A stretch of DNA of 64,000 bases, from the sequence record MN850601.1; one strand, given 5' to 3'. A model generated the notes under the pieces. That model made no database searches and was not told the DNA's origin. It saw nothing but the letters and a program-made list of their open reading frames with translations. Positions 41,911 through 56,826 of the stretch are shown in pieces. A program made the position numbers and the translations under genes. Origin of the DNA: Escherichia phage inny. Position 1 is the first letter of the stretch; every line of letters starts with the position of its first letter.

Positions 41911-42462
41911 ATGCGGATTACTGATAAGTATGTGTTCTTCTTCTCGGCAAAAGATGAATTTAGCAACTGGTATCTATCATCTTTTATTGAACCTTTAGCT
42001 CCCAAGTATAATAATTCTATTACAAGTTCTGTTGAATTTACTTGTGTGGAACAATATATGATGTGGAGAAAAGCATGTTTGTTTTATGATTACAACATTG
42101 CATCTTCTATTTTAACCGGAGATCTAAGATATACAGGAGAAAAAGAACAGGCATATTATAAGCGACTAGGTAGATTAGTTAAAGATTACGATGAAGCTAC
42201 TTGGACTTCTTTACGGGAGAAGATTGTCAAGCGTGGTTTGTATCTTAAATACACACAAAATGAAGATCTCAAAAATAAACTTATCGCTTACGCAGATAAG
42301 GAGTTCGTAGAGGCAAGCCCTTATGATTCTATTTATGGTATCAAAATGGGAATGTGGGATCGTGATGTGGAAAATAAGGACTGTTGGAAAGGACAAAATC
42401 TTTTAGGAAAATGGCATACAGACCTTGCTGTTTATCTAAAAGCACAATCTGATATTTCCTGA
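41911..42462 (+). CDS. NADAR (YbiA-like, DUF1768) domain protein
   Basis: 183 aa; FFFSAKDEFSNWY, FTCVEQYMMWRKA, EASPYDSIYGIKMG, WKGQNLLGKW align with YbiA as recalled. Confidence 0.7.
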   Translation: MRITDKYVFFFSAKDEFSNWYLSSFIEPLAPKYNNSITSSVEFTCVEQYMMWRKACLFYDYNIASSILTGDLRYTGEKEQAYYKRLGRLVKDYDEATWTSLREKIVKRGLYLKYTQNEDLKNKLIAYADKEFVEASPYDSIYGIKMGMWDRDVENKDCWKGQNLLGKWHTDLAVYLKAQSDIS

Positions 42463-42885: not shown

Positions 42886-42899
42886 TTTTTATAGGTGTG

Positions 42900-43015
42900 T
42901 TAATGAGAATCATTTTCGTTTGTAAATGAGAATCATTATCATTTAACTATGTAAGTGATAATCATTCTCAGTAAGAGAATGAGAATCATTAGCAAATGAG
43001 AATTTTCTCATTTAG
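42900..43015. promoter_or_regulatory. cluster of five ATGAGAATCATT-type palindromic boxes (Fur-box-like)
   Basis: atgagaatcatt x2, gtgataatcattctca, aatgagaatcatt, aatgagaattttctcatt; ATGAGAATCATTATC matches 14/15 of the Fur consensus core. Confidence 0.45.
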
Positions 43016-43244
43016 AGAATAACGCGCAGGGGCGGTGTTTGTCTCGCGCTCCCGTGTCCCCTCGCCATACAATAAGAATAGCATAACCAACAACAAAAGC
43101 AAGCGATTATTTTTATCTTTACATTTCTTTACAAATTTATTTTAGACGAGCTACCGGCGATCAACCTTCCAACCAGTGCCCCCTGGTATGTTAGCCCCGC
43201 CTTTACGCCGTGGGGGTGGCGTTTCCTCTTCTGTATGTAAAACA

Positions 43245-43272
43245 GTATAAGCCCGATCCCTGGGCTTGTCAA
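43245..43272 (-). promoter_or_regulatory. orphan sigma70-like promoter (TTGACA-N17-TATACT) reading leftward into GC-rich non-coding DNA
   Basis: Reverse complement of tgtcaa...agtata; no ORF with plausible start downstream. Confidence 0.35.
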
Positions 43273-43274
43273 GA

Positions 43275-43541
43275 TTATTTTTTGTTTTCTTGCCAGGATA
43301 GGACACCTAACCAAAAATACATGTCGCCCCGCGCCCCTGGCGGGATCTTGCTTTCCCCGCCGCCACTACAAGCCCATAGATAACCATTAGCGAACGGATC
43401 AAAATGATCTATTTCTTCCACCTTATGATCGCCCAGGTTGAGAACGGTTTCAACCTTTAAGCCCGTTGCGCTTGCTACCTGGTGCACCGTGCCGCCTTGC
43501 CAGCCTAATGAGTGCATGAGGTGTAGAGTAGTATTTGTCAT
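43275..43541 (-). CDS. hypothetical protein
   Basis: 88 aa; led on minus strand by hairpin + CATCAAAGAAAGGG RBS like the rightward cassettes. Confidence 0.5.
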   Translation of the reverse strand: MTNTTLHLMHSLGWQGGTVHQVASATGLKVETVLNLGDHKVEEIDHFDPFANGYLWACSGGGESKIPPGARGDMYFWLGVLSWQENKK

Positions 43542-43544
43542 GGT

Positions 43545-43640
43545 ATCGCCCTTTCTTTGATGTGCGCCCTGGTTGGCGCGGTAGAAAGATAATAGCCCTT
43601 TCCTTTATAGATAGCAAGCAAAAAAAAGAAATGAAAAAAA
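43545..43640 (-). promoter_or_regulatory. promoter + stem-loop cassette (minus-strand copy)
   Basis: On minus strand: TTGCTT-N17-TATTAT, then hairpin GCGCC-N6-GGCGC, then ACATCAAAGAAAGGG. Confidence 0.4.
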
Positions 43641-43664
43641 GATTAAAAAAGGGGTTGACGTTCC

Positions 43665-43693
43665 TCACCTGGTAGCGTATTATTCATCTTGTC
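43665..43693 (+). promoter_or_regulatory. sigma70-like promoter (TTGACG-N17-TATTAT)
   Basis: Divergent from minus-strand cassette. Confidence 0.4.
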
Positions 43694-43810
43694 GAGGGGG
43701 GCGAGGCACAACGACAATAAACAAAAGGAGGGCGCAATGTAGGACGGGCAAAGGTGAGGATCTCCATAATCCACCGTCACAATAACATTACTTATAAAAG
43801 GTTGATAACG

Positions 43811-43914: not shown

Positions 43915-43970
43915 TTGACAACGTTTTTTAATCTGATAAGATGTATCACATAGGGCGGCAATAGTGCCGC
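43915..43970 (+). promoter_or_regulatory. early promoter + 5' stem-loop cassette
   Basis: TTGACA-N16-TAAGAT, then CATAGG + hairpin GCGGCA-ATAG-TGCCGC. Confidence 0.55.
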
Positions 43971-43994
43971 TCATAACAGAAGAGAGAAATAATC

Positions 43995-44267
43995 ATGGCA
44001 TCATATAGCGCATCAATGATCGTAATGGGCATCACTGGTAAACCTATGCGCGGTGGCGGATCTTTCGCTAACATCAATATTGATGGGCGTTTATCCCTGG
44101 ATGCAGCGATCACCGTGGCACGGGAAACATTTAAAAAAGAATGTAATTTCAATAAACAAGATTATCTCGGTTTCGCTATTGAAAAAACCGCGCGATTTGT
44201 GGATTATAAAAGCCCGAAAATGATCGACACTACACTAAAAGCGCAAGATGTAGCGTTTTTGCTTTAA
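43995..44267 (+). CDS. hypothetical protein
   Basis: 90 aa; follows cassette. Confidence 0.55.
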   Translation: MASYSASMIVMGITGKPMRGGGSFANINIDGRLSLDAAITVARETFKKECNFNKQDYLGFAIEKTARFVDYKSPKMIDTTLKAQDVAFLL

Positions 44268-44269
44268 GT

Positions 44270-44330
44270 CTTGACACTGAAAAATAATTTGGTAATATAT
44301 ACTCCATAAGGCGGGAAATGGTTTCCCGCC
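44270..44330 (+). promoter_or_regulatory. early promoter + 5' stem-loop cassette
   Basis: TTGACA-N16-TAATAT, hairpin GGCGGGAAA-TGG-TTTCCCGCC, then CATCAAAGAAAGGG. Confidence 0.55.
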
Positions 44331-44355
44331 AGGCCATCAAAGAAAGGGTAACACA

Positions 44356-44718
44356 ATGAGCAAGCAAATCAATACTATCATGTTAAACCTGGTATCTTTC
44401 CGCGACGACGTGAAAAATCTTCCACGTGATGCAGTGGATGCACGGATCGAAAGCTATCGCTCACAGATCGCAACGCTACCGCTAAAACGTGATCAACATG
44501 CCGCTAATATGATGCTTAATGCTATGCTTAAAAAGATGATTCAATGTGATCTTACCCTGGCTTATGAATATGCTGGCGATCTCTTTGTAACATATAGCAA
44601 GCCCGTACCAGGTATGAGCACAACGGAAGAATTGCATGCCTTAAATCTGCGACAAGATGCATGGGATAACATGCGCCGTGTTATGGTATGGGTAGAAAGC
44701 GGTAAAATTTACGAATAA
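44356..44718 (+). CDS. hypothetical protein
   Basis: 120 aa; follows cassette. Confidence 0.55.
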   Translation: MSKQINTIMLNLVSFRDDVKNLPRDAVDARIESYRSQIATLPLKRDQHAANMMLNAMLKKMIQCDLTLAYEYAGDLFVTYSKPVPGMSTTEELHALNLRQDAWDNMRRVMVWVESGKIYE

Positions 44719-44724
44719 AAACGG

Positions 44725-44778
44725 TTGACATTGCACTAAAACCTGATAAGCTATCTTAAAGCGGGAATAGTTCCCGCT
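44725..44778 (+). promoter_or_regulatory. early promoter + 5' stem-loop cassette
   Basis: TTGACA-N16-TAAGCT, hairpin GCGGGAA-TAG-TTCCCGC. Confidence 0.5.
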
Positions 44779-44796
44779 TACATAGGATAAAACTTT

Positions 44797-44943
44797 ATGA
44801 AACAATATGTAATGAGTATTCACACCAAAAACGGCGCTACTGTTACGACTCCGGCACGGTTTGCACTTGTAAACCGTTGCAAGAGACTAAAACGAGAGCT
44901 AAAAAACAACCGTGCAACGGGCTTTAAACGCTGGGGAGGATAA
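44797..44943 (+). CDS. small basic protein (about 48 aa)
   Basis: Below track cut-off; MKQYVMSIHTKNGATVTT...KRLKRELKNNRATGFKRWGG; coordinates approximate. Confidence 0.4.
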   Translation: MKQYVMSIHTKNGATVTTPARFALVNRCKRLKRELKNNRATGFKRWGG

Positions 44944-44945
44944 TC

Positions 44946-45206
44946 TTGTTTTTTCTAAAAGTTTTTGATAATGTGATCGCTTTTGAACATGCTACAACGT
45001 TCAACCTGGCGAGATACGCTATCAGGTTTAAAGATAATGTTTATCCCCGTGCTGGCGGCGGTTACACTATTTTTAATCATCGTAATGCGCAACTAACAGA
45101 TATAACGAATCCAGATCCTGGGGTGTATCGCATAGGCTGGCTACCGTCAAAAGACGCGGCAAGCATGTTTAAGGTATGTAAACTACTAACAGAAGAGGCG
45201 AACTAA
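44946..45206 (+). CDS. hypothetical protein (TTG start)
   Basis: 86 aa; GGAGGA 5 nt upstream of TTG, coupled to previous stop. Confidence 0.4.
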   Translation: MFFLKVFDNVIAFEHATTFNLARYAIRFKDNVYPRAGGGYTIFNHRNAQLTDITNPDPGVYRIGWLPSKDAASMFKVCKLLTEEAN

Positions 45207-45207
45207 C

Positions 45208-45762
45208 ATGGGGCGTGAATATGTGATCCAGTCCTGGGTAAAGCATGATGCTAATGATCCGCGCATAATACCAGATGACATGATCGATCACATGGTAGGA
45301 TATAGCGGGGAGCAGATAGGAAATCGAGCGGCAAAGAGCAACGGCAACACAAAGGCGCGATCCGTTCGCCCTGGTTGGCTGGCAAATGGTAACGCTGACA
45401 TTGCAAGCGCCGCAGATCCAAGCGATGACGCTAAAAATAATCCCTTATACAGCATTGATCCGGCTTTTAAGGTGTTAGAAGAGTATCCCGCTAAATTAGC
45501 CGCACTAGATAAGGCATACGAAGAAAAGCGCATGGCATGGACTGTATACAACACCGCTAAAATGGTGCTAGATGCAAAATTGATTAAAGCCCAGGAGAAG
45601 ATCAATAAACTTGTTGCAGTAGCGCAAGAGGAAGACCAGGACGACCAGGAGGAAGAGGAAGAAATCATGCCTACCCTGGAAGAGGAAGAGATCCAGCCAT
45701 ACATGCCGACGGAAGAGGAAAAAAGACAAGCCCTAAAAAATTATGAAAATTGTATTGTGTAA
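45208..45762 (+). CDS. hypothetical protein with strongly acidic C-terminal region
   Basis: 184 aa; QEEDQDDQEEEEEIMPTLEEEEIQPYMPTEEE. Confidence 0.55.
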   Translation: MGREYVIQSWVKHDANDPRIIPDDMIDHMVGYSGEQIGNRAAKSNGNTKARSVRPGWLANGNADIASAADPSDDAKNNPLYSIDPAFKVLEEYPAKLAALDKAYEEKRMAWTVYNTAKMVLDAKLIKAQEKINKLVAVAQEEDQDDQEEEEEIMPTLEEEEIQPYMPTEEEKRQALKNYENCIV

Positions 45763-45765
45763 GGC

Positions 45766-45871
45766 TTGACATATGCAAACAAGCCCCGTAATATGTACCA
45801 CATAAAGCGGGGCAACGCCCCATAAGGTGAAATAAAAAATCACTTGACACCTGAAATCAGTAAGCTATAAT
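45766..45871 (+). promoter_or_regulatory. tandem early promoters, first with stem-loop
   Basis: TTGACA-N17-TAATAT + hairpin GGGGC-AAC-GCCCC; then TTGACA-N16-TATAAT. Confidence 0.5.
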
Positions 45872-45908
45872 GCTTATATAGATTGAAACATTACTAAGGA
45901 ATAAAAGC

Positions 45909-46088
45909 ATGGCTATTATTGCAAATACTGAGATCGTAGGTTTAGATTCTATCATCCTGGCATATGAGGAAGCTATAGAAATGTATGTGGTTTCCTATGG
46001 TGATTATATCCGTGAATATAAATCTATTGATCTAGCTTTTGAATGTTATATTCGCCAGGTCAATAAAGCCTATGATGATTATCGTTAA
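45909..46088 (+). CDS. small hypothetical protein (59 aa)
   Basis: Below track cut-off; AAGGA upstream; MAIIANTEIVGLDSIILAYEEAIEMYV... Confidence 0.4.
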   Translation: MAIIANTEIVGLDSIILAYEEAIEMYVVSYGDYIREYKSIDLAFECYIRQVNKAYDDYR

Positions 46089-46107
46089 AAGTTTTAGTCT
46101 TGTGCTA

Positions 46108-46136
46108 TTGACAACGAACGATAGTACAAGCATAAT
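46108..46136 (+). promoter_or_regulatory. sigma70-like promoter (no stem-loop)
   Basis: TTGACA-N17-CATAAT. Confidence 0.4.
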
Positions 46137-46183
46137 AACTTTTATCGGGAATACTCCTAACTAATCAAAAGAGATTAAAGACT

Positions 46184-46549
46184 ATGGCTAAAAATATCAA
46201 TGTTTCTGCTTATGCTACCCTGGCTAACACTGCTAAAATTGAACTATCCAGCATTGAAGCGGTACATATTAGCGCCCGTCGCTGGTTTCAAAAGTCTTAT
46301 GGTAATACTTATTTCTCTTTGATGGTTGACGTTGAGATCGGCGGTAAACTGATTGAAGTCGTTAACGTTCCGTTTCAATATGGTTATGGTGATCATTTTG
46401 ATACCGTTGCCCTAGAAGAGTTTAGCAAGGTTATCAACCTGGAAGGTAAAGACTTTTCAAATTATGCTTACCTTTCCCGTTTTTGCCGTGACAATGGGAT
46501 CGCTGTATACAGTCATGCAAGCGATGTTAAACGTAAAAAAGATCTATAA
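46184..46549 (+). CDS. hypothetical protein
   Basis: 121 aa ORF. Confidence 0.55.
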   Translation: MAKNINVSAYATLANTAKIELSSIEAVHISARRWFQKSYGNTYFSLMVDVEIGGKLIEVVNVPFQYGYGDHFDTVALEEFSKVINLEGKDFSNYAYLSRFCRDNGIAVYSHASDVKRKKDL

Positions 46550-46555
46550 AAAGCA

Positions 46556-46612
46556 TTGACAACAGAAAGAAAAAGAGTAAACTGTATCACATCAGGACGG
46601 GGAACGGTTTCC
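46556..46612 (+). promoter_or_regulatory. early promoter + 5' stem-loop cassette
   Basis: TTGACA-N16-TAAACT, hairpin GGGGAA-CGGT-TTCCCC, then CTAACAAAGAGAG. Confidence 0.5.
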
Positions 46613-46638
46613 CCCTCCTAACAAAGAGAGAAATAAAA

Positions 46639-46821
46639 ATGGCTAAATGCACTATCTGTAAGAAAGAAATAGTATTAGTTCCAAGCGCCCGTGAACGTGC
46701 CGCTAAGTTCGGTGGCAAACCGTCAGACTATACGAAAATGTTTACTACCCATGCAGCTTGTCAGGTAGCAAAACGTTCACAAGAAAGCGTAGAATTAATG
46801 CGTAAACTTTCCAAAAAATAA
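46639..46821 (+). CDS. hypothetical protein
   Basis: 60 aa; follows cassette. Confidence 0.5.
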   Translation: MAKCTICKKEIVLVPSARERAAKFGGKPSDYTKMFTTHAACQVAKRSQESVELMRKLSKK

Positions 46822-46823
46822 TA

Positions 46824-46883
46824 TTGACAAAGTATTTTATTACTATATAATGGTTTACATCGAGAGCGGGAATAGTTCCCGCC
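46824..46883 (+). promoter_or_regulatory. early promoter + 5' stem-loop cassette
   Basis: TTGACA-N16-TATAAT, hairpin GCGGGAA-TAG-TTCCCGC. Confidence 0.55.
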
Positions 46884-46906
46884 TCACTGAAAAAGAGATT
46901 AACATC

Positions 46907-47146
46907 ATGGCTAAATCAAAAATGTTCTTAGGTCACAAAAATAAAACTCATTGGAATGTAAGCCTTTGGATCAACAACGATGAAGGTTTTTATAATCTTG
47001 CGCGTGAATTTATCGCAGCTAACACCAATAAGAATGACGCAGCGCGGGATATGATGTTATTCCTTGAAAGTATGGATCAAGATAAAACGCCAGACGGTTA
47101 CAAGTTCAGTAAAACTGCAATCCGTGCCGCTATGGTAGGAATGTAA
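46907..47146 (+). CDS. hypothetical protein
   Basis: Track ORF 46850..47146 trimmed to ATG after cassette (MAKSKMFLGH...). Confidence 0.5.
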   Translation: MAKSKMFLGHKNKTHWNVSLWINNDEGFYNLAREFIAANTNKNDAARDMMLFLESMDQDKTPDGYKFSKTAIRAAMVGM

Positions 47147-47155
47147 TAAAATAGC

Positions 47156-47216
47156 TTGACACTGTTTTTTATTCTGGTATAGTTTATCACATAGGGCGGG
47201 AAATGGTTTCCCGCCA
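47156..47216 (+). promoter_or_regulatory. early promoter + 5' stem-loop cassette
   Basis: TTGACA-N17-TATAGT, CATAGG + hairpin GGCGGGAAA-TGG-TTTCCCGCC, AAATCAAAGAAAGG. Confidence 0.55.
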
Positions 47217-47237
47217 AATCAAAGAAAGGTTATTATT

Positions 47238-47465
47238 ATGGCTATCGTTATTGTTCGCGTATCCGGTACGGTTGGAAGCTCCCAAGTAGTAGCAGTTATC
47301 ACCGAGAAGAAAGGGGATGATCTTCACTCTTCCTTGAATAGCTGGGCGGTCGCTAACTTCGGGCAATGGTCGAGCGTTGAGTACATCGAATCCTACCAGG
47401 TGCCAACGATTAGCCTAACAGATCTGAATGTTGATCGCTTGTTGTGCCTGGATGGATTAAACTAA
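47238..47465 (+). CDS. hypothetical protein
   Basis: 75 aa; follows cassette. Confidence 0.5.
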   Translation: MAIVIVRVSGTVGSSQVVAVITEKKGDDLHSSLNSWAVANFGQWSSVEYIESYQVPTISLTDLNVDRLLCLDGLN

Positions 47466-47473
47466 AAATAATC

Positions 47474-47530
47474 TTGACAAGATAACTAAAATCAGTAAAA
47501 TGTAATGCATAGGGCGGCAATAGTGCCGCT
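47474..47530 (+). promoter_or_regulatory. early promoter + 5' stem-loop cassette
   Basis: TTGACA-N16-TAAAAT, CATAGG + hairpin GCGGCA-ATAG-TGCCGC. Confidence 0.55.
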
Positions 47531-47552
47531 CATAGTAAGAGAGATTATCAAA

Positions 47553-47768
47553 ATGGCTAATATCCGCACACTGTTAAAAAATGCAAGTCAAGTTTTATTT
47601 TCAGATGACGAGTATTTCAACAAAGACATTACAGGCGTGAAAAATTTAAAAGACGTGAAGGATGTTATCGGTATCCGTGGATCTTTACGTAAAGGTGACA
47701 TATACGGTAACAAGGTGCAATATAAACTGTCAAAAGATTATGATTTTACTTTGACAATTATTTCATAA
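47553..47768 (+). CDS. hypothetical protein
   Basis: Track ORF 47505..47768 trimmed to ATG after cassette (MANIRTLL...). Confidence 0.5.
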   Translation: MANIRTLLKNASQVLFSDDEYFNKDITGVKNLKDVKDVIGIRGSLRKGDIYGNKVQYKLSKDYDFTLTIIS

Positions 47769-47774
47769 AACCGC

Positions 47775-47836
47775 TTGCAATACTGCAAAAATAAAGTAAA
47801 CTGTATTCATCAAGGCGGTGGAATAGCCCACCGCCT
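47775..47836 (+). promoter_or_regulatory. early promoter + 5' stem-loop cassette
   Basis: TTGCAA-N17-TAAACT, hairpin GGCGGTGG-AATAGC-CCACCGCC. Confidence 0.5.
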
Positions 47837-47859
47837 AACAAAGAGAAGAGGAAAACATC

Positions 47860-48030
47860 ATGATCACTTTCGCTACCCGTGAAGCCGCTCGCAACGTTGC
47901 ACGTAAAGTTAACGCCGCCAACCTGGGCGCTACGCTTAAAGCCCCGGTAAAAGATGAATCAGGTAAATGGATCTTCCCTGGTTTGCGTCACGCTGATAAG
48001 CTGGGAACGTTAACGTTAAAAAATAAATAA
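47860..48030 (+). CDS. small hypothetical protein (about 56 aa)
   Basis: Below track cut-off; MITFATREAARNVARKVNAANLGATLKAPVKDESGKW...; coordinates approximate. Confidence 0.4.
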   Translation: MITFATREAARNVARKVNAANLGATLKAPVKDESGKWIFPGLRHADKLGTLTLKNK

Positions 48031-48037
48031 TATCCGC

Positions 48038-48098
48038 TTGACAGTAGCATGATTTATAAGTAAAGTAACAACAACGGCGGGAAATGGTTTCCCGCCAT
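48038..48098 (+). promoter_or_regulatory. early promoter + 5' stem-loop cassette
   Basis: TTGACA-N17-TAAAGT, hairpin GGCGGGAAA-TGG-TTTCCCGCC. Confidence 0.55.
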
Positions 48099-48116
48099 CA
48101 ATAAAGAGATAAGATT

Positions 48117-48476
48117 ATGAAATCAGCAAAAGCAATTAAAACTTATATTGTGTCGGCTATTTCTTTTGAAGGTACTACAACCGAAAAAGAAAAGATCACC
48201 GAACTGATGCGCCGTTTTAACTCTGAATACTGGTATCCCGATAATCAAAAACGTTACAATTATAACGTGATCAAGGCGATAGCCTCATGGTTACAAGGTT
48301 TACCGTCAGAAATCAATATTGCTTTTGATTATAACGAGATCGATCACTTATTAATTGAATGGAAGTACATAAAAGAAACAAGCAAAGAAACAACCGTTAC
48401 CCGTGAGCGGGAAAATTATTGGTTATATATTGCAAGCATGATCGTAATCCTGGCAAAACAGCATAACGTGGCGTAA
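48117..48476 (+). CDS. hypothetical protein
   Basis: 119 aa; follows cassette. Confidence 0.55.
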   Translation: MKSAKAIKTYIVSAISFEGTTTEKEKITELMRRFNSEYWYPDNQKRYNYNVIKAIASWLQGLPSEINIAFDYNEIDHLLIEWKYIKETSKETTVTRERENYWLYIASMIVILAKQHNVA

Positions 48477-48490
48477 TTAAGAGGAAAAAC

Positions 48491-48628
48491 ATGAACGCAT
48501 CACAGCAGATCGAAAAATTCAACCGCAGCAAGGCGCGTAAAGATTGGAACGAAGAGATCACCAAAAAAGGCGACAAGCGGAACAAAACAAAGAGAGATCG
48601 CAGCACAAAAAGATACTGGAACGAATAA
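48491..48628 (+). CDS. small basic protein (about 45 aa)
   Basis: Below track cut-off; AAGAGGAAAAAC upstream; MNASQQIEKFNRSKARKDWNEEITKKGDKRNKTKRDR... Confidence 0.35.
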   Translation: MNASQQIEKFNRSKARKDWNEEITKKGDKRNKTKRDRSTKRYWNE

Positions 48629-48633
48629 CAAAA

Positions 48634-48656
48634 AAGGGCGCTTATTGCGCCCTTTT
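48634..48656 (+). terminator. rho-independent terminator
   Basis: AAGGGCGC-TTAT-TGCGCCCTTTT. Confidence 0.6.
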
Positions 48657-48746
48657 AGCTTATATAGAGGCTTGTTACCCATAGGCAATGGTAACGCCAG
48701 GATAAGCCTATAAACCACGTTAGACAGCTTTACAGGAGCTTTAAAA

Positions 48747-48929
48747 ATGAAATTAGAAGAAATAAGCAAGGCACTAGCCCAGGGGCAAAGGTTAAACGCC
48801 CGTTATCGTGATCAATATGGCTTCATAACCAGCGGCGTGATCCTGGGGATTGAAGGCAATAAGATTTTTATTGACACGTTGAAAAACGTTGTATATAGTG
48901 ACAATATAATCTCAATAAAACATATATGA
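48747..48929 (+). CDS. hypothetical protein
   Basis: 60 aa; AGGAG SD. Confidence 0.45.
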   Translation: MKLEEISKALAQGQRLNARYRDQYGFITSGVILGIEGNKIFIDTLKNVVYSDNIISIKHI

Positions 48930-48937
48930 GGCAAGAA

Positions 48938-49339
48938 ATGAAAAAATTATTGATCGCTGGTTTAATCTCTTTTGGCATGGTTGGAACATCTAGCGCGGCG
49001 ATATCCTCCACAGTAGCAGAATTAAGCGCCGTTGATGCAATGGAAAACGTGATGCTTATTAATAATGCGATCCCCGATGAAATCATGGAGGATTCACACA
49101 TGATCGCTTATGGTGCTGTTACACAACTAACGGCAAAAATAGATAAATCTATTGTTAATGGCTTAAATGAAGATGTACCATGTGAAATTATTACCAGTGT
49201 GCTCACTACTCAAAATTTTACGCCGTGGTTAAAAAGTATTCAAAAAGTACACAGTACAGCCGCAGATCGTAGCAATGAAAAACTAGTGTCAGCACTTGCA
49301 ACGTATACCCTGGCAAAATGCACCGAGATAAAAGATTGA
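48938..49339 (+). CDS. secreted hypothetical protein
   Basis: Track ORF trimmed to ATG (MKKLLIAGLISFGMVGTSSAA...), signal-peptide-like. Confidence 0.55.
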   Translation: MKKLLIAGLISFGMVGTSSAAISSTVAELSAVDAMENVMLINNAIPDEIMEDSHMIAYGAVTQLTAKIDKSIVNGLNEDVPCEIITSVLTTQNFTPWLKSIQKVHSTAADRSNEKLVSALATYTLAKCTEIKD

Positions 49340-49364
49340 CAACATAGAAAGCACGTTATAAGAT
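49336..49364 (+). promoter_or_regulatory. sigma70-like promoter (no stem-loop)
   Basis: TTGACA-N17-TAAGAT. Confidence 0.4.
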
Positions 49365-49386
49365 ACACACAACAAAGGAGAACTAC

Positions 49387-49689
49387 ATGAACGGCATAGC
49401 TAAAACGTTTTTTCTTTTTTCTGGTGTAAATGATCCATCAATAAAAGTCGATAGTGTAAAAGAAAACAATACTATCACCGCTAAATTGTTTCAAGATGAA
49501 ACAAATAACGTGCTAATCATTAATCTTAAAGAAATAACGAAAGGTTATTGTACTATTGCTTACCATGCAATCTATCATGCTGGTACTAGTGAGGAAGTGC
49601 AAACAAGCAACAACGAAAGCGCGGCGCTACCTGGTGATCTGGTGCTGGGCGTTATCAGTTTAATTGTCAATGATTTTTTTAAGGAGTAA
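49387..49689 (+). CDS. hypothetical protein
   Basis: 100 aa; AAAGGAG SD. Confidence 0.55.
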   Translation: MNGIAKTFFLFSGVNDPSIKVDSVKENNTITAKLFQDETNNVLIINLKEITKGYCTIAYHAIYHAGTSEEVQTSNNESAALPGDLVLGVISLIVNDFFKE

Positions 49690-49693
49690 AACC

Positions 49694-49789
49694 ATGCCCT
49701 ATTTACATTTATTTTTCGGGATCTTATTGTCAGGATCTTTTTTCTTCTGTATACTTGTTTCTATTGTAAACCACGTTTTAAGACATTAA
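49694..49789 (+). CDS. tiny hydrophobic peptide (31 aa), speculative
   Basis: AAGGAG SD; MPYLHLFFGILLSGSFFFCILVSIVNHVLRH. Confidence 0.25.
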   Translation: MPYLHLFFGILLSGSFFFCILVSIVNHVLRH

Positions 49790-49798
49790 GGAAACAAC

Positions 49799-49918
49799 AT
49801 GAAAATTATTCCCGTACAGTATAGCGTAATAAATCCAGCATATGAGGAAGGAAGGAAAACAAGCATGGTTTTATGTTATATTGCTACTATAGCCATGTTG
49901 TTATATATTGTGTTTTAA
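49799..49918 (+). CDS. tiny membrane peptide (39 aa), speculative
   Basis: MKIIPVQYSVINPAYEEGRKTSMVLCYIATIAMLLYIVF. Confidence 0.25.
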   Translation: MKIIPVQYSVINPAYEEGRKTSMVLCYIATIAMLLYIVF

Positions 49919-49947
49919 TAGGTTTTATAGTTGTACGCTTTAAAGGC

Positions 49948-49975
49948 TTGACAATTTTTTGTTATGCTTTAAAAT
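49948..49975 (+). promoter_or_regulatory. sigma70-like promoter (no stem-loop)
   Basis: TTGACA-N16-TAAAAT. Confidence 0.4.
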
Positions 49976-50018
49976 ATATCTTGAAAACGGCAAAGGCCGC
50001 AAACAAAAGGGTAAAATT

Positions 50019-50342
50019 ATGAAATCTGTGATAGGTGTTTATTTGGATAACTCTGATTTTTTCTATCATCGCGCGCGTTTACTTGATGCTATTGAAATGA
50101 TAGAATCAGGCTTTAAAGAGTATCGCCTTGCACATGATGACCTGGAAGCATTACAGGGCAATAGTGTTTTTACATTGCAAGCGAAAGCACTATGCAAAAG
50201 CCGGATCGAGATTGCGAGCAAAAAGATAGAACGCGGCATGTCCTGGTTGCGCACCGCAGAAATCAACATGGGGCAATGGTACGGCGAAAACTTAGAAAAT
50301 AAACATACTTTTGTCAATGTAGAAAATATTGAAGATTATTGA
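50019..50342 (+). CDS. hypothetical protein
   Basis: Track ORF 49959..50342 trimmed to ATG (MKSVIGVY...). Confidence 0.5.
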   Translation: MKSVIGVYLDNSDFFYHRARLLDAIEMIESGFKEYRLAHDDLEALQGNSVFTLQAKALCKSRIEIASKKIERGMSWLRTAEINMGQWYGENLENKHTFVNVENIEDY

Positions 50343-50343
50343 T

Positions 50344-50406
50344 TGACAGCACACCGAACGGGTAGTATATTGTATCTCATAGAGCGGGGAAATGGTTTCC
50401 CCGCCT
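50344..50406 (+). promoter_or_regulatory. early promoter + 5' stem-loop cassette
   Basis: TTGACA-N17-TATATT, CATAGAG + hairpin GCGGGGAAA-TGG-TTTCCCCGC. Confidence 0.55.
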
Positions 50407-50424
50407 TAAAAGAAGAGATAAGCT

Positions 50425-50709
50425 ATGAAGATCACAAAAGCACTTTCCAACTATGCAGCACGTCGCGGCTTATGTTTAACCGTTGAAAACTTAGGGAAAG
50501 AAGATTTTTTGTGCTTTTGGGAGCTTGAGAATGATAATGAGTGGATCTTCTCTTATTCTATCTGCGAAGATCAAAACGGTTGTTTATTAACCTGGCGCGG
50601 TAATATCTATCTACCGGAAGAAATCAAAGAAGAATTACCAGGCACGATCATGACTGAGAAACAGCTTAAGGAAGTGATTAATTTTGTAGGGCAAAACATT
50701 AAAAAATAA
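50425..50709 (+). CDS. hypothetical protein
   Basis: 94 aa; follows cassette. Confidence 0.55.
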   Translation: MKITKALSNYAARRGLCLTVENLGKEDFLCFWELENDNEWIFSYSICEDQNGCLLTWRGNIYLPEEIKEELPGTIMTEKQLKEVINFVGQNIKK

Positions 50710-50710
50710 T

Positions 50711-50771
50711 TTGACACTAGGCAAACAACGTAGTAAAGTTTATCACATAGGGCGGCAATAGTGCCGCTCAT
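50711..50771 (+). promoter_or_regulatory. early promoter + 5' stem-loop cassette
   Basis: TTGACA-N17-TAAAGT, CATAGG + hairpin GCGGCA-ATAG-TGCCGC (near-identical to 43915 and 47474 copies). Confidence 0.55.
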
Positions 50772-50790
50772 AACAGAAGAGAAACAAATC

Positions 50791-50961
50791 ATGATCCCGA
50801 CTATGTTTTATGTATCGCGCAAAGGTCACAATATTTTTTGGTCTGAAGATTTAAATGAAGCCATGACGTTTGCCCGTGATCGTGTAGCTATCGGTGGCGT
50901 TAACATCACCGTAACCGATGAAAACGGCATTGAATACTATAACGGCGACGATGAAGAGTAA
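50791..50961 (+). CDS. hypothetical protein
   Basis: Track ORF 50761..50961 trimmed to ATG after cassette (MIPTMFYVSRKGHN...). Confidence 0.45.
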   Translation: MIPTMFYVSRKGHNIFWSEDLNEAMTFARDRVAIGGVNITVTDENGIEYYNGDDEE

Positions 50962-50965
50962 TTAA

Positions 50966-50992
50966 TGAGGCGGGGGAGTATTCCCCGCCGTC
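50966..50992 (+). promoter_or_regulatory. 5' stem-loop without obvious own promoter
   Basis: GGCGGGG-N-CCCCGCC hairpin then GTCAATAAAGAGG before ATG of 51009. Confidence 0.4.
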
Positions 50993-51008
50993 AATAAAGA
51001 GGTAAATC

Positions 51009-51278
51009 ATGAAAATATCTTTGGACGTTGCAATCAAGGCCATCGAATCCGGTTACACCCTGGTAAAAGATGATAAGGCTAAAACCGTGCACCACGTTAA
51101 CAAGGAAACAGGCGAAAGCATGATCACATATAAAGCCGCCTACTTTCTCCAATCAGTAGCAGATCCGCGCGTACAACGCCAGGTTACGGCGGCTATTGCT
51201 AAAAAATTATGTGCTTTACAGGGTACAAGTTTTAACGAGATCGCCCCGTGTTTTGACTGGTCGAGCTTGAAAAAATAG
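51009..51278 (+). CDS. hypothetical protein
   Basis: 89 aa ORF. Confidence 0.55.
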   Translation: MKISLDVAIKAIESGYTLVKDDKAKTVHHVNKETGESMITYKAAYFLQSVADPRVQRQVTAAIAKKLCALQGTSFNEIAPCFDWSSLKK

Positions 51279-51280
51279 TT

Positions 51281-51340
51281 TGACAATACGCGGTTATCTG
51301 GTAAAGTGTACGACATAGGGCGGGGCAATAAGGCAACGCC
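51281..51340 (+). promoter_or_regulatory. early promoter + 5' stem-loop cassette
   Basis: TTGACA-N16-TAAAGT, CATAGG + GC-rich hairpin (GGGCGGGGCAATAAGGCAACGCCC). Confidence 0.5.
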
Positions 51341-51360
51341 CATTAATGAGGGTAGAATCA

Positions 51361-51465
51361 TGTTAGAGAAAATTTTCACGGTTGTAGTAGTGGGCCTGGC
51401 GTTATCGGTTGGAGTGGTTGCAACTATGGCTAACATGATCCTATCTTCCCACGGTATTGGATAAG
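51361..51465 (+). CDS. tiny membrane peptide (about 34 aa), speculative
   Basis: MLEKIFTVVVVGLALSVGVVATMANMILSSHGIG; coordinates approximate. Confidence 0.3.
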
Positions 51466-51474
51466 GTGAATCAA

Positions 51475-51690
51475 ATGATCACGAATAAGACAGGTAAAAC
51501 GGAATTCTTGCGCGGCTTGCAAATAGGTAAACCTGAGATCTGGCATTGCACTAAATCCGCGCATAATGAAATGAAAGATTTTACCGCTACTTTACAACGT
51601 GTTAAAATATCTATCACGCAGAAAAAAGCCTTGTTAGTAGTAGAAAACGAGATACCGCAAACCATTATTATTGTCGAGCGTACAGCATGA
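51475..51690 (+). CDS. hypothetical protein
   Basis: Track ORF 51457..51690 trimmed to first ATG (MITNKTGK...). Confidence 0.45.
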   Translation: MITNKTGKTEFLRGLQIGKPEIWHCTKSAHNEMKDFTATLQRVKISITQKKALLVVENEIPQTIIIVERTA

Positions 51691-52073
51691 AAACTGAAAT
51701 CATTATTGAAATCATCAACGGTTATAAAGAAGCCTTTATTTTTGCTGAATCAGCCAGGGATCATGAAGGTAATTTTATAGATGACATGACTGATCATGAG
51801 TTTTCAGATCAAGCCCATCAGCGGATCATACATGACGTGGCGGCGTTTTGTGATGCCAATGATGCCGCTATCTCTGAGGCAATGAGCGACGGCGCTACAG
51901 CAAACCAGATCGGGAATGACTTACATTTCACCCGTAACGGTCACGGTGTAGGCTTTTGGGATCGCCCTGAAATATACACTACTAACACCGCCAACCGCCT
52001 AACAAATGCAGCTAAATTAATGCCATCGGTGCATGCTTACATTGGTGAAGATAATTTGATTTATATTGAATAA
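51687..52073 (+). CDS. hypothetical protein
   Basis: 128 aa; start overlaps previous stop. Confidence 0.55.
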   Translation: MKTEIIIEIINGYKEAFIFAESARDHEGNFIDDMTDHEFSDQAHQRIIHDVAAFCDANDAAISEAMSDGATANQIGNDLHFTRNGHGVGFWDRPEIYTTNTANRLTNAAKLMPSVHAYIGEDNLIYIE

Positions 52074-52079
52074 AAAGTA

Positions 52080-52137
52080 TTGACACCGATCCCCAATATG
52101 GTACTATTTACCACGTAGGCGGGAAGTGGTTTCCCGC
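52080..52137 (+). promoter_or_regulatory. early promoter + 5' stem-loop cassette
   Basis: TTGACA-N16-TACTAT, hairpin GGCGGGAAG-TGG-TTTCCCGCC. Confidence 0.5.
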
Positions 52138-52161
52138 CAGGTAATCAAAAAGGTAAATACT

Positions 52162-52551
52162 ATGCGCAACCTGGTTTCTGTTTCTAACGTTGAAAAATTT
52201 CAATCTTTACAGGGTATCGTTAACAACGTAGCGCCTTTTTTAGTCAACGGCTTGATTGCAAAGATGAAAAATAAACATCATGCGGCATGGTCTGCTTACT
52301 GCTTTGATAATGATGAAAAAGCGGCTGAAATGATGTTAAATATGCTGTTAGACAGTGTAGAATCATCTTTACCGGAAAACATCGCAGAAGAGATCACCTA
52401 TCGTTATAATATGGCGATCACTTACCAGGAGGTTGCGCAATTCAACATGATGGATGATGACGAACAACAGGATCAGGAAATGTTTTGGGAGTATGCAGAT
52501 CGTCAATCGGCTTTTGATGAAAAATTAGCGATGTATTATAACGAATATTAA
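52162..52551 (+). CDS. hypothetical acidic protein
   Basis: Track ORF 52126..52551 trimmed to ATG (MRNLVSVS...); acidic MMDDDEQQDQEMFWEY. Confidence 0.55.
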   Translation: MRNLVSVSNVEKFQSLQGIVNNVAPFLVNGLIAKMKNKHHAAWSAYCFDNDEKAAEMMLNMLLDSVESSLPENIAEEITYRYNMAITYQEVAQFNMMDDDEQQDQEMFWEYADRQSAFDEKLAMYYNEY

Positions 52552-52566
52552 TACACGGTAAAAGAA

Positions 52567-52592
52567 AGGGGCGCACTAAGCGCCCTTTTTTG
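52567..52592 (+). terminator. rho-independent terminator
   Basis: GGGGCGC-ACTAA-GCGCCCTTTTTTG. Confidence 0.6.
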
Positions 52593-52936
52593 TATTCTTT
52601 TTTCACGATGGAAGTAACACGTAAAGAATAGGCGTAAAGGTGGCGTAAAACAGCCTAAAACCGATTATAACCGCTTAAACAAGGTAATAATGATTAATCA
52701 CCTTGCCAGGATGAAAAAGCTGTTATAAAGCTATTTAGAGCGTTTAAAGCACATAGGAAATAATTTGCTTTTTATCTTGCCTTTTATCCTGCTTTTGATT
52801 ATTATTATGGAACGGGCGGCACCTGGGAGCAGGGGAAGATAATCACCGGACGATCTTATTATATATTGATAGCTTCCACCTATCAAATAACAAAACATCA
52901 AAGAAATAAACTATCAAATCTTTACAATTCTACCTA

Positions 52937-52996
52937 TTGACACCGGATCGCCCTTATACTAAGATGTATCACGTAAGGCGGGAAGTGGTTTCCCGC
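52937..52996 (+). promoter_or_regulatory. early promoter + 5' stem-loop cassette
   Basis: TTGACA-N17-TAAGAT, hairpin GGCGGGAAG-TGG-TTTCCCGC. Confidence 0.55.
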
Positions 52997-53015
52997 TCAA
53001 TATAGGAATCATATC

Positions 53016-53246
53016 ATGATCGAACAAATTAAACGCGCTGAAGCTATTAACGGCAATGTGATCTATTCTGTCAGCAATAACGAAAAAGGCGTACCCTATG
53101 CAGCGGTGATAGTACAGCCTGACGGTGATTATTGGTTTACTGTATACGGATCTTATTCTTTTGGGCGTCCAGTACATGATAAAATTTTGAAAGTAGCTAA
53201 TCCCACTGGGAAGAATATCACAGTAGAAAAATTTTTTGAAAAATAA
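53016..53246 (+). CDS. hypothetical protein
   Basis: 76 aa; follows cassette. Confidence 0.5.
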   Translation: MIEQIKRAEAINGNVIYSVSNNEKGVPYAAVIVQPDGDYWFTVYGSYSFGRPVHDKILKVANPTGKNITVEKFFEK

Positions 53247-53321
53247 CTTGCTTTATAGCCTCTGTTAACTTATAGTTATCGTGTAGGGCAAATCATTTTA
53301 AACGGTAAACGAGGAATCACC

Positions 53322-53705
53322 ATGAGCAATATCATCAACCTGGCGGCTACTGTAAACGGTAAAGATTTTAACGGCGCTGTAGATCGTGATCCTATGTGGT
53401 GCTTATCAGTGTTTAAAGGTGACTTGGTTGAAGTTAGAACAACCGAAGGGTATAGCGATGATTATAAATGCGAGATCCATTTACATAACTGGTACACGGG
53501 TAAAACTTATGCGCTGAATCACGCGTTTATCGGGAAAATTGAATATCGCGAGATGATCGACGAAGAAACGGGGCAAGATTTTAGCCAGCATGTTTATATT
53601 CGTTCCGAAACATTAGCCGAACGTTTGATCGAGAAAATGAAAGCAAAAAATAAAATTAATTTATCTCATTGGATTGATATAACAAACGATCCGGCTTATA
53701 AGTAA
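53322..53705 (+). CDS. hypothetical protein
   Basis: 127 aa; GAGGAA SD. Confidence 0.55.
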   Translation: MSNIINLAATVNGKDFNGAVDRDPMWCLSVFKGDLVEVRTTEGYSDDYKCEIHLHNWYTGKTYALNHAFIGKIEYREMIDEETGQDFSQHVYIRSETLAERLIEKMKAKNKINLSHWIDITNDPAYK

Positions 53706-53719: not shown

Positions 53720-53748
53720 CAGGGCGCACAAAGCGCCCTTTCTTTTTA
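53720..53748 (+). terminator. rho-independent terminator
   Basis: GGGCGC-ACAAA-GCGCCCTTTCTTTTT. Confidence 0.55.
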
Positions 53749-53951: not shown

Positions 53952-54025
53952 AAATGATAATCATTCTTATCTATAGCTGATTATTTATGCAATAAATTGC
54001 ATAATGCAATAATGATAATCATTCC
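53952..54025. promoter_or_regulatory. two Fur-box-like palindromes
   Basis: AAATGATAATCATTCTTATC and ATAATGATAATCATTC against consensus GATAATGATAATCATTATC. Confidence 0.45.
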
Positions 54026-54892: not shown

Positions 54893-54915
54893 TGCAAATG
54901 ATAATCATTATCAAC
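54893..54915. promoter_or_regulatory. near-consensus Fur-box-like palindrome
   Basis: AAATGATAATCATTATC matches 16/17 of Fur consensus TAATGATAATCATTATC. Confidence 0.5.
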
Positions 54916-55078: not shown

Positions 55079-55110
55079 GAATGATAATGCAAATGATAAT
55101 TATTCTCATT
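55079..55110. promoter_or_regulatory. tandem Fur-box-like half-sites
   Basis: GAATGATAATGCAAATGATAATTATTCTCATT. Confidence 0.4.
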
Positions 55111-55229
55111 GATATTTGAGGGGGACGGTCGGCAGAAATCGGGGGGGCGCTGAAAATCGCGTTAAGCACCTCTCGCAAGCGAGCAGTGTTTTGCGGCAAG
55201 TTATTGATATTATTGACTTTACGCTTATG

Positions 55230-55342: not shown

Positions 55343-55470
55343 AATAATTGATAGGGAAATCCTATACTAATCCCTCCATTAATGATGTTCCTAGATTACT
55401 GTTCTTGTAATAGATGAAAAGACGCTGTATAATGTGTGGCATGAAACGTAAACTTATAAAGGAGTCTGAT

Positions 55471-55848
55471 ATGTGTGTCCCTCTCAGCAGTCCACTGCTG
55501 TTAGAATTTTACAAAGCATGGATGGAAGATCATTCCTCAATGCATCGTGAGAATGTTGGTTTGTGTATTTGCCTTATGGATTATCTGGCAACCACTATGT
55601 CAAAGAAAAAACCTACGCAAGAAGATATAGAACATTTCAAGATGGTTCGTAGTAAAACGTTAGAAGAGATGAAATTGCAATTCACGTGTGCTGGGCTATC
55701 CTCCTTCCTGCCCTTTAATGATGACCTTCTGTGTTATGAAGATGAAGGTAAGAAACATTCTTGCCATACTAACCCAGGGAGATTGCAGTGGGTGAAAGAT
55801 CGTATTGCCGATTCATGTTTGGTGTTAGGGGGTGGTAATGAAAAGTAA
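55471..55848 (+). CDS. hypothetical protein, paralog family A (LLEFYKAW...CHTN..RLQWVKDRI)
   Basis: Track ORF 55414..55848 trimmed to ATG with AAGGAG SD (MCVPLSSPLLLEFYKAWMEDH...). Confidence 0.55.
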   Translation: MCVPLSSPLLLEFYKAWMEDHSSMHRENVGLCICLMDYLATTMSKKKPTQEDIEHFKMVRSKTLEEMKLQFTCAGLSSFLPFNDDLLCYEDEGKKHSCHTNPGRLQWVKDRIADSCLVLGGGNEK

Positions 55849-56206: not shown

Positions 56207-56276
56207 AAATGTCTGTACACTGTGTTCCATAAGATATGCAATATCGCGCATAACAAACTACTAATGAGAGGTGTAA

Positions 56277-56594: not shown

Positions 56595-56595
56595 C

Positions 56596-56811: not shown

Positions 56812-56826
56812 AAAGAGGAAAAGAAG

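Follow-up and report, generated by a model that had tools for sequence, protein, structure and literature searches.

The DNA analysed here is a 64,000-nucleotide (nt) stretch of Escherichia phage inny (record MN850601.1), called the window below. Its subject is an array of 29 curated ORFan genes on the plus strand (43915-53705), 14 of which start behind a 5' hairpin and a weak Shine-Dalgarno (SD) site. Megablast placed the window in the phi92/phAPEC8-type group of E. coli myoviruses (286 records matched), and over 97-98% of the region at 43.9-53.7 kilobases (kb) it shares 96-97% identity with, among others, vB_EcoM_ESCO8, ZYD and Nernie; 19 relatives of the phage carry the label 'Campylobacter' in their records. 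The array limits given in a preliminary description of the DNA proved correct, 43915 being where the first perfect TTGACA promoter begins and 53705 where the final array gene stops. Judged from their sequences, about half of the array genes are single-gene cassettes built on one plan.

The cassette genes, designated class H, are the 14 array genes that start 17-25 nt after a GC hairpin of 6-9 base pairs (bp) located behind a sigma-70 promoter. The remaining 15 genes are second or third in a transcription unit, or follow a promoter lacking a GC hairpin or, in the case of gene 51009, follow a hairpin lacking a promoter. Perfect TTGACA-N16-18-TAnnnT sites number about 19 in 43.9-53.0 kb versus 7 in the remaining 54 kb of the plus strand. 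Several array promoters have an extended -10 element and the DNA upstream of the -35 boxes is A/T-rich; from these promoters the array is presumed to be expressed early. The hairpin begins 6-15 nt (mostly 9-12 nt) after the -10 element in the 13 units having a continuous stem and is preceded by a conserved initial transcribed stretch, gtatcaCATA. Transcription start sites were predicted from the promoter consensus, and given a predicted start 7-8 nt after the -10 element (the CA of gtatcaCATA), 2-4 unpaired nt precede the stem in nearly all of the 14 minimum-free-energy folds. The loops tgg, tag and atag recur. The hairpins were considered as intrinsic terminators and rejected: they have no T-run (U-tract in the RNA), none was called as a terminator on the plus strand, and the real terminators lie elsewhere (Table 1).

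Shine-Dalgarno strength and leader anatomy

SD strength was scored over positions -20 to -1 in two ways, as the ViennaRNA duplex energy (ΔG) with the 16S rRNA tail ACCUCCUUA and as the length of the longest stretch identical to TAAGGAGGTGA, with spacings of 3-13 nt allowed. Array start codons were picked by eye, and the 29 array genes were compared with 92 genes outside the array. The array genes had a median ΔG of -5.0 kcal/mol, with 34% at -6 kcal/mol or below and 28% having a core match of at least 5 nt, versus a median of -8.7 kcal/mol, 79% and 65% (60/92) for the pooled outside genes. The preliminary description, which set weak purine-rich AAAGAGA sites in the array against canonical AAGGAG sites elsewhere, had proposed this tabulation as its check, and the tabulation bore out a difference in SD energy (Mann-Whitney p = 8.3e-6). 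The block medians indeed differ, but the array proved to be mixed. Weakness was confined to class H (median -4.1 kcal/mol, 14% at or below -6, a core of at least 5 nt in 0/14), whereas the other 15 array genes were intermediate (median -6.0 kcal/mol, 53% and 8/15). Class H differed from the other array genes in SD energy (Mann-Whitney p = 0.003) and from the outside genes in the frequency of cores of at least 5 nt (Fisher p = 2.3e-6). Hence, the observation is real, but it marks the hairpin-led cassette genes rather than the whole block, and the claim of two initiation-site designs stands, with the weak design statistically tied to the 5' hairpin both here and in 53 units across phages (see below).

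Each outside block had strong sites. The left block (n = 60) gave a median of -8.7 kcal/mol, 82% at or below -6 (98% when the best start was chosen) and 68% having a core of at least 5 nt; the 37976-42462 block (n = 7) gave -7.3 kcal/mol, 86% and 29%; and the 55414-64000 block (n = 25) gave -9.1 kcal/mol, 72% and 68%. Hexamer counts told the same story. AAGGAG was in excess in the left block (33 observed versus 12 expected, z = 5.9) and in the right block (15 versus 2.8, z = 8.0) but not in the array (2 versus 2.5, z = -0.3), whereas an excess of AAGAGA was peculiar to the array (14 versus 3.2, z = 6.1). Sites of the AAGAGA, AAAGG or AGGA type belong to the 14 class H genes plus gene 46184. 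Among the other array genes are normal SDs such as GGAGG (44946), AGGAG (48747), AAGGAG (49387 and 49694) and GAGGT (51009). Within class H the core is a 4-nt match in seven leaders and GAG only in the other seven. The strongest class H sites are those of units 8 and 12 (Table 1).

Two trivial sources of the contrast were discarded. When the alternative start having the best SD was taken for every gene, only 33% of the array ORFs (open reading frames) reached -6 kcal/mol versus 88-100% elsewhere; the contrast persists and thus start-codon choice is not its cause. Nor is it an effect of short ORFans, as the block at 55.4-64 kb also consists of small ORFs and yet has the strongest SDs.

The class H leaders are strikingly regular. 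Their -20 to -1 regions are 52% A, and positions -16 to -9 contain 0.64 pyrimidines per leader versus 2.42 outside (p = 4e-5). Although the leader overall is 17% G, G is found at -10 in 10 of the 14 (p = 1e-5) and at -9 in eight (p = 8e-4). A occupies -3 in 12/14 class H leaders versus 47/92 (51%) outside (p = 0.02) and -6 in 11/14 versus 35/92 (38%) (p = 0.007); a study of E. coli initiation reports A-3 and A-6 as positive determinants (PMC6847099). Four of the 14 coding sequences open with ATG GCT, two of these being ATG GCT AAA. The mean class H pairing (-4.23 kcal/mol) was stronger than that of composition-matched shuffles of the same 20 nt (-2.15 kcal/mol; 0/300 shuffles were as strong), and random array positions were weaker than class H leaders (mean -2.0 kcal/mol). 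Given the placement of the G-containing core, and pairing stronger than that of shuffles and random positions, class H sites are degenerate SDs at normal spacing rather than SD-less starts.

The weak pairing is accompanied by a low cost of unfolding. Opening positions -18 to +10 was calculated to cost 3.2 kcal/mol in class H (RNA from the predicted start site) versus 7.5 kcal/mol outside (p = 2.5e-4); in a -60 to +40 readthrough context the class H cost was 4.7 kcal/mol. The sum of SD and opening energies was -1.0 kcal/mol for class H and +0.1 kcal/mol for both the other array genes and the outside genes (class H versus outside, p = 0.91), so that, on this simple model, the two designs would differ in how they reach their initiation energy but not in its size. 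With the summed energies equal, nothing in the sequence by itself requires translation to be weaker or regulated. In silico insertion of AAGGAGG at -13 to -7 in all 14 leaders raised the opening cost by a mean of 1.2 kcal/mol for a pairing gain of 7.5 kcal/mol and left the hairpins intact. As the swap costs just 1.2 kcal/mol of opening, mispairing of a G-rich SD with the hairpin's C-rich 3' arm was discarded as the reason for weak sites. Hfq (ARN)n and CsrA GGA motifs were also sought in the leaders by eye and set aside, the triplet register being broken and the loops lacking GGA.

Catalogue of the array and its surroundings

The units and other features are collected in Table 1. All of the array proteins tested matched PHROG families of unknown function. 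The matches of the hairpin-led proteins tested (10/10) were full length from residue 1 (for the unit 1 protein, residues 1-90 on positions 1-90 of PHROG 8099), which supports the assigned starts.

Table 1. Coordinates of the hairpin-led units, other array genes and flanking blocks in the window (numbers after the word gene are start positions unless a range is given; ΔG, SD duplex energy in kcal/mol).
Feature	Position	Strand	Promoter	Hairpin	Leader	Start	ΔG	Remarks
Left comparison block	1-37955	minus						replication, nucleotide-metabolism and Ter-like genes; strong SDs; n = 60
Unit at 19650	gene 18673-19650	minus		GCGGAGGAttgTCCTCCGC	attaaagaggagaaaaga		-9.1	sole promoter plus hairpin unit found outside the array; strong SD
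Short gene block	37976-42462	plus						n = 7 genes
Mostly non-coding stretch	~42.5-43.9 kb							AT-rich, then GC-rich
ORFan array	43915-53705	plus						29 curated genes
Unit 1	43915-43997	plus	43915-43942 (TTGACA-16-TAAGAT, TGn)	43953-43972 (GGGCGGCA/atag/TGCCGCTC)	43973-43994 ataacagaagagagaaataatc	ATG 43995, coding to 44267	-5.0	core GAG only
Unit 2	44271-44358	plus	44271-44298	44310-44330 (GGCGGGAAA/tgg/TTTCCCGCC)	aggccatcaaagaaagggtaacaca	ATG 44356, coding to 44718	-4.5	AAGG
Unit 3	44725-44799	plus	44725-44752	44759-44779	acataggataaaacttt	ATG 44797
Unit 3, downstream gene						TTG 44946	-11.3	GGGGAGG; same transcription unit, normal SD
Unit 3, downstream gene						45208		GAGG; same transcription unit, normal SD
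Unit 4	46556-46641	plus	46556-46583	46595-46620 (core 46599-46614)	ctcctaacaaagagagaaataaaa	ATG 46639	-4.9	60-residue CxxC protein
Unit 5	46824-46909	plus	46824-46851 (TTGACA-16-TATAAT)	46866-46882	ctcactgaaaaagagattaacatc	ATG 46907	-2.9	DUF7249
Unit 6	47156-47240	plus	47156-47185	47195-47215	aaatcaaagaaaggttattatt	ATG 47238	-3.6
Unit 7	47474-47555	plus	47474-47501	47512-47531	atagtaagagagattatcaaa	ATG 47553	-5.4
Unit 8	47775-47862	plus	47775-47802 (TTGCAA-16-TAAACT)	47813-47836	aacaaagagaagaggaaaacatc	ATG 47860	-6.0
Unit 9	48038-48119	plus	48038-48066	48076-48096	atcaataaagagataagatt	ATG 48117	-2.9
Unit 9, downstream gene						48491		AAGAGG; followed by terminator 48632-48656
Genes without GC hairpin	48720-49918	plus						ordinary SDs
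Gene 48747		plus				48747	-6.6	AGGAG
Gene 48938		plus				48938	-5.6	GAGG
Gene 49387		plus	49336-49364 (own)			49387	-8.7	AAGGAG
Gene 49694		plus				49694	-8.7	TAAGGAG
Gene 49799		plus				49799	-6.1	TAAGGA
Unit 10	50343-50427	plus	50343-50371	50384-50404	cttaaaagaagagataagct	ATG 50425	-2.9
Unit 11	50711-50793	plus	50711-50739	50750-50769	ataacagaagagaaacaaatc	ATG 50791	-2.9
Gene 51009, next after unit 11				upstream, without promoter		51009	-7.1	GAGGT
Unit 12	51280-51362	plus	51280-51307	~51318-51341 (interrupted)	..attaatgagggtagaatc	ATG 51360	-6.1	GAGG; downstream genes 51475 and 51687 coupled
Unit 13	52080-52164	plus	52080-52107	52118-52138	aggtaatcaaaaaggtaaatact	ATG 52162	-3.9	terminator 52563-52591
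Unit 14	52937-53018	plus	52937-52965	52977-52997	caatataggaatcatatc	ATG 53016	-4.2
Last array gene	53322-53705	plus						T4 gp30.8 family; GAGGA; terminator 53721-53739
Non-coding stretch	53.7-55.4 kb							AT-rich
Right comparison block	55414-64000	plus						small ORFs packed tightly, strong SDs; n = 25

The Pfam matches of the left block include NrdD, an NrdG-type activase, UvrD, DnaB/primase, DNA polymerase A (PolA) and Ter families. The same block also encodes proteins of the tellurite-resistance type (TerC, TerD, TelA, a vWA-TerF-like protein and a ComF-like PRTase) and a NADAR domain protein, assigned by Pfam to 1-37955 as a whole. The window contains no tRNAs and gave no Rfam matches at gathering thresholds.

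Both non-coding stretches flanking the array contain Fur-box-like repeats (42899-42993, 53954-54023 and 54894-54912), and looser copies were seen by eye near 42950 and at 55080-55115. Six exact copies of ATGA(G/T)AATCATT are present in these flanks versus 0.05 expected, and four sites differ from the E. coli Fur box GATAATGATAATCATTATC at no more than three positions, the closest (54894) at two. Candidate roles for these repeats are the binding or titration of Fur, service as origin iterons, or that of a phage operator. Upstream of the array a GC-rich island (43000-43600) of 44-54% GC, versus 25% immediately upstream, holds an 88-residue minus-strand ORF (43275-43541; PHROG 19316, function unknown) transcribed away from the array. 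At 43655-43745 lies a promoter-like TTGACG-17-TATTAT; after it come a strong SD and an ORF of two codons, a 'start-stop' (aaaaggagggcgcaATGTAG). Within the array a 64-nt stretch (50587-50650) of gene 50425-50709 is 81-84% identical to coliphages of about 50 kb (Phunderstruck, tonnikala, JK16 and others).

Conservation and exchange of the cassette

When the 14 units were compared with one another, promoter spacers (z = 2.4) and the 20 nt upstream of the -35 element (z = 1.5) were no more alike than shuffles, whereas the initial transcribed region (z = 11.5), the hairpin (z = 23.6), the leader (z = 5.6) and the first 21 nt of coding sequence (z = 8.4) were alike beyond shuffles. Six units could be aligned end to end with the relative ESCO37, and their leaders were 90% identical versus 79% for the spacers. 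In the ESCO37 orthologue of unit 7 the sequence gagagag is replaced by gagggat (ΔG -6.3 kcal/mol). Part of the leader similarity may be the outcome of concerted evolution.

The cassettes also behave as joints. In 8 of the 14 units, homology between the window and ESCO37 is interrupted within the cassette itself, in the spacer, just after the -10 element or at the ATG. The segment 46589-46898, which comprises the unit 4 hairpin and leader, the CxxC gene and the next promoter, recurs in the unrelated jumbo Asteriusvirus phages PBECO4, WPEC3, SP27 and 121Q at 75-89% nucleotide identity and in 5-12 places per genome (for example PBECO4 6001-6330); the unit 4 hairpin, leader and gene are 88-89% identical to PBECO4 and WPEC3. 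The module is common to the jumbo phages both with and without its gene. This sharing looks like modular exchange across phage families of the kind described for the PeSL (promoter-early stem-loop) cassettes discussed below; the cassette-internal breakpoints together with the jumbo-phage copies argue that the module is exchanged as PeSLs are.

An annotation-free scan was done on the window, ZYD, ESCO37, three IMG/VR contigs, the rV5-like phage LL12 and jumbo phage PBECO4 for a promoter, a GC hairpin no more than 20 nt on, and the first ATG opening an ORF of at least 30 codons. It found 53 unique promoter-plus-hairpin units with a median ΔG of -4.9 kcal/mol, 17% of them reaching -6 kcal/mol and 4% reaching -8 kcal/mol. 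Of these, 50 were tabulated by position: A was at -3 in 45/50 and at -6 in 38/50, and purines filled -12 to -10 in at least 49/50. The hairpins themselves were diverse across units and phages, with 34 distinct hairpins and 17 loop types. The ESCO37 array as a whole had a median ΔG of -5.5 kcal/mol; within it hairpin-led and other genes did not differ (p = 0.39), but nearly all of its genes follow an often imperfect hairpin and the classifier split is arbitrary. The LL12 array leaders are of the AAGAGG(T) or AAAGGAG type, with a median of about -7.2 kcal/mol versus -8.2 to -8.8 kcal/mol in its other blocks.

LL12 also has, behind a promoter-plus-hairpin unit, a gene (8192-8509) annotated as 'sigma 54 modulation factor', a family of ribosome hibernation factors. 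A phage factor of this kind that binds ribosomes would be a candidate means of moving translation from one leader class to another; the family was not among the 25 Pfam families listed (of 30) for the non-array proteins of the window. A literature search for transcriptomes or 5' untranslated region descriptions of rV5/phi92/phAPEC8-type phages turned up the rV5 genome paper alone, which lists 33 sigma-70 promoters and describes neither hairpins nor SD classes.

Readings of the weak sites and their relation to known systems

The account we favour, with confidence a little better than even, is that class H genes have a distinct leader architecture in which an open A-rich context makes up for a weak SD, a conserved but probably ordinary alternative to AAGGAG sites. 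The cassette runs from a near-consensus sigma-70 promoter through gtatcaCATA and the 5' GC hairpin to an A-rich unstructured leader of 18-25 nt and the ATG, the leader holding a vestigial SD (a GAG, AAGG or AGGA core centred at -10/-9) plus A-3 and A-6. The 30S subunit would be recruited chiefly through accessibility of the site and the A-rich context (S1 and Kozak-like determinants), aided by an SD contact of 3-4 bp. GC-rich bases would be sequestered in the hairpin, away from the initiation region, and by analogy with ompA the hairpin probably guards the transcript's 5' terminus against RppH and RNase E. In genes of long operons and in second or third genes of array units, AAGGAG or GGAGG would pay for a more structured context. 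The similar predicted initiation free energies make the contrast architectural and not necessarily regulatory.

Several points weigh against this account. The class H leaders are related copies, some near-identical (43995, 47553 and 50791), so that the effective n is below 14 and the p-values overstate independence. Start sites and early timing were read solely from the promoter consensus, and the summing of free energies is crude modelling. Across the 92 outside genes, opening cost is uncorrelated with SD strength (rho = +0.14), and compensation is therefore seen between classes only. A free leader was rejected as a sufficient cause, as 17 outside genes having an upstream gap of at least 60 nt keep a median of -9.1 kcal/mol; hence a free leader alone does not yield a weak SD and something cassette-specific does. 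The purine-rich style is shared with LL12, but the very weak form of the SD is lineage-specific. Finally, in the folding model a strong SD is not forbidden, and the favoured account leaves its consistent absence unaccounted for.

That absence could be selected, a point in favour of a second explanation, passive temporal control: early cassette mRNAs, produced in a burst by strong promoters, would be translated well while ribosomes are free and would later be outcompeted by strong-SD middle and late mRNAs, no dedicated factor being needed. The SD gap between the classes (about 4.5 kcal/mol) is large and consistent, and the design is conserved across phage lineages. However, the overall predicted initiation energy is equal in both classes, and second or third genes of array units that have normal SDs (44946, 45208 and 48491) would escape the shut-off. 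We consider this explanation unlikely.

An equally unlikely reading, in our estimate, is hitch-hiking, in which the weak site is inherited neutrally within a promoter-hairpin-leader module that spreads PeSL-like by duplication and recombination. The breakpoints within cassettes, the sharing of the module (with or without its gene) with Asteriusvirus and the near-identical leader copies all fit such spread. Neutral inheritance is harder to reconcile with spacers that are randomized in the same units in which leader positions are kept, with G-10/-9 and A-3/-6 that are position-specific over 50 unique units, and with orthologous leaders conserved above their spacers. The kept positions argue for selection on the leader; selection for weakness itself does not follow.

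A more ambitious proposal is that the 5' hairpin, purine-only leader and vestigial SD form a dedicated control element common to Stephanstirmvirinae and Asteriusvirus, which would switch the early ORFans on together and off later through a phage or host factor or a changing ribosome pool, the absence of a strong SD being selected. We view this as quite improbable. Its relative, in which the hairpin and purine leader are an operator for a trans-acting RNA-binding protein or nuclease (phage or host) that switches all cassettes, has in our opinion only a slim chance. In T4, RegB is a GGAG endoribonuclease and RegA a translational repressor of early mRNAs; the operator would follow a RegA-like logic and resemble RegB only in the common target. 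Conservation of gtatcaCATA, of the loops tgg, tag and atag and of the purine-only tract exceeds the needs of ribosome binding, and the same module is present in unrelated phages. However, no candidate factor was identified for the operator, no repressor was found, no Rfam family was matched, and the diversity of hairpins and loop types fits selection on structure better than on a specific binding site.

The preliminary description had suggested avoidance of a GGAG-specific endoribonuclease like RegB, a suggestion that fared badly and that we now regard as highly improbable. Measured against dinucleotide shuffles, GGAG is somewhat scarce in the array (14 versus 23.3, z = -2.0; GAGG is not), but within coding sequence its deficit relative to synonymous-codon shuffles falls short of significance (8 versus 13.4, p = 0.065) and four array SDs keep GGAG (44935, 48735, 49377 and 49683). 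Homologues of RegB were seen in T4-like genomes only: tblastn with T4 RegB (100% identity to T4 itself) matched 1138 records, and 25/25 evenly spaced rows were T4-like (23 were genomes of 160-172 kb and two were smaller records). The 19 'Campylobacter'-labelled relatives were absent from the tally, whose smallest entry is 15, so a match would have ranked. The RegB family was not among the 25 Pfam families listed (of 30) for the 92 non-array window proteins, and the array proteins tested gave no match; the approximately 83 kb of genome outside the window was covered via relatives only (tblastn). What T4 has in common with the present case is the idea that a sequence recurring in the initiation regions of early mRNAs would serve as a handle for joint control. 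However, T4 early mRNAs carry GGAG and are RegB targets, the reverse of the arrangement here, in which GGAG is avoided in hairpin-led leaders only. The remaining possibility, an artefact of wrong starts or non-gene ORFs, arises because the ORFs are short, of unknown function and have starts chosen by eye, but it is barely credible given the survival of the contrast with best-SD starts, the full-length PHROG matches from residue 1 and the constant hairpin-to-ATG distance.

If the favoured account is true, the phage group runs two initiation designs side by side, one of them tied to a portable module circulating also in unrelated jumbo coliphages, and about 50 natural variants offer a way to gauge the extent to which an open A-rich leader plus a 5' hairpin can replace SD pairing in E. 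coli. Gene callers that weight ribosome-binding sites are prone to mis-start or miss such ORFs, and the annotation of relatives is inconsistent. The module would also provide phage engineering with a ready-made insulated expression cassette.

The canonical SD, a match of at least 4-5 nt to the CCUCC core located 5-10 nt upstream of the start, is found in 65% of the outside genes and not in class H. Departures from it have precedents. Komarova et al. are said to have described S1-dependent A/U-rich enhancers. Kozak-like initiation dependent on A-3 and A-6 in E. coli is treated by Baez et al. (2019, PMC6847099). Class H resembles such open A-rich initiation in its low folding at the start codon, its A-richness and its A-3 and A-6. 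The differences are that class H has a fixed G-containing purine core at -10/-9, making it weak-SD rather than SD-less, and that a single gene class has this design, in a phage that otherwise relies on strong SDs.

A second precedent lies in 5'-terminal stem-loops, which Emory, Bouvet and Belasco reportedly recognized in 1992 as mRNA stabilizers. Such stabilizers, which lengthen mRNA half-life by blocking decay that depends on the 5' end (RppH, RNase E), are present in the 5' untranslated region of E. coli ompA and in the T7 phi10 leader of pET vectors. As in those leaders, a stable hairpin lies a few unpaired nt from the predicted 5' end and is followed by a single-stranded initiation region; unlike class H, however, those leaders have good SDs.

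The closest parallel is with the PeSL cassettes of T4-type phages (Arbiol, Comeau & Krisch 2010, PMC2839356; Comeau et al. 2014, PMC4122927), in which the stem-loop lies mostly between -35 and -10 or over the -10 element, acts as a terminator or attenuator of upstream transcription, and belongs to a unit that ends in an SD (PMC2839356). Both kinds of cassette have strong sigma-70-like promoters with AT-rich upstream DNA repeated among ORFans, and in both a stem-loop made of a G-run and a C-run precedes a small ORFan with its ribosome site and ATG. Both serve as recombination joints, here with breakpoints in 8/14 units and modules shared with Asteriusvirus. Unlike in PeSLs, the hairpin here is always downstream of the -10 element, would be transcribed at the mRNA 5' end and has no U-tract; and whereas a PeSL unit ends in an SD and start codon, here the start codon follows a degenerate SD. 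The hosts of the cassettes also differ, PeSLs being found in T4-type phages and the present units in a Stephanstirmvirinae-type myovirus. Weak-SD open leaders, 5' stabilizer hairpins and PeSL-like cassettes are already known and the finding alone overturns nothing.

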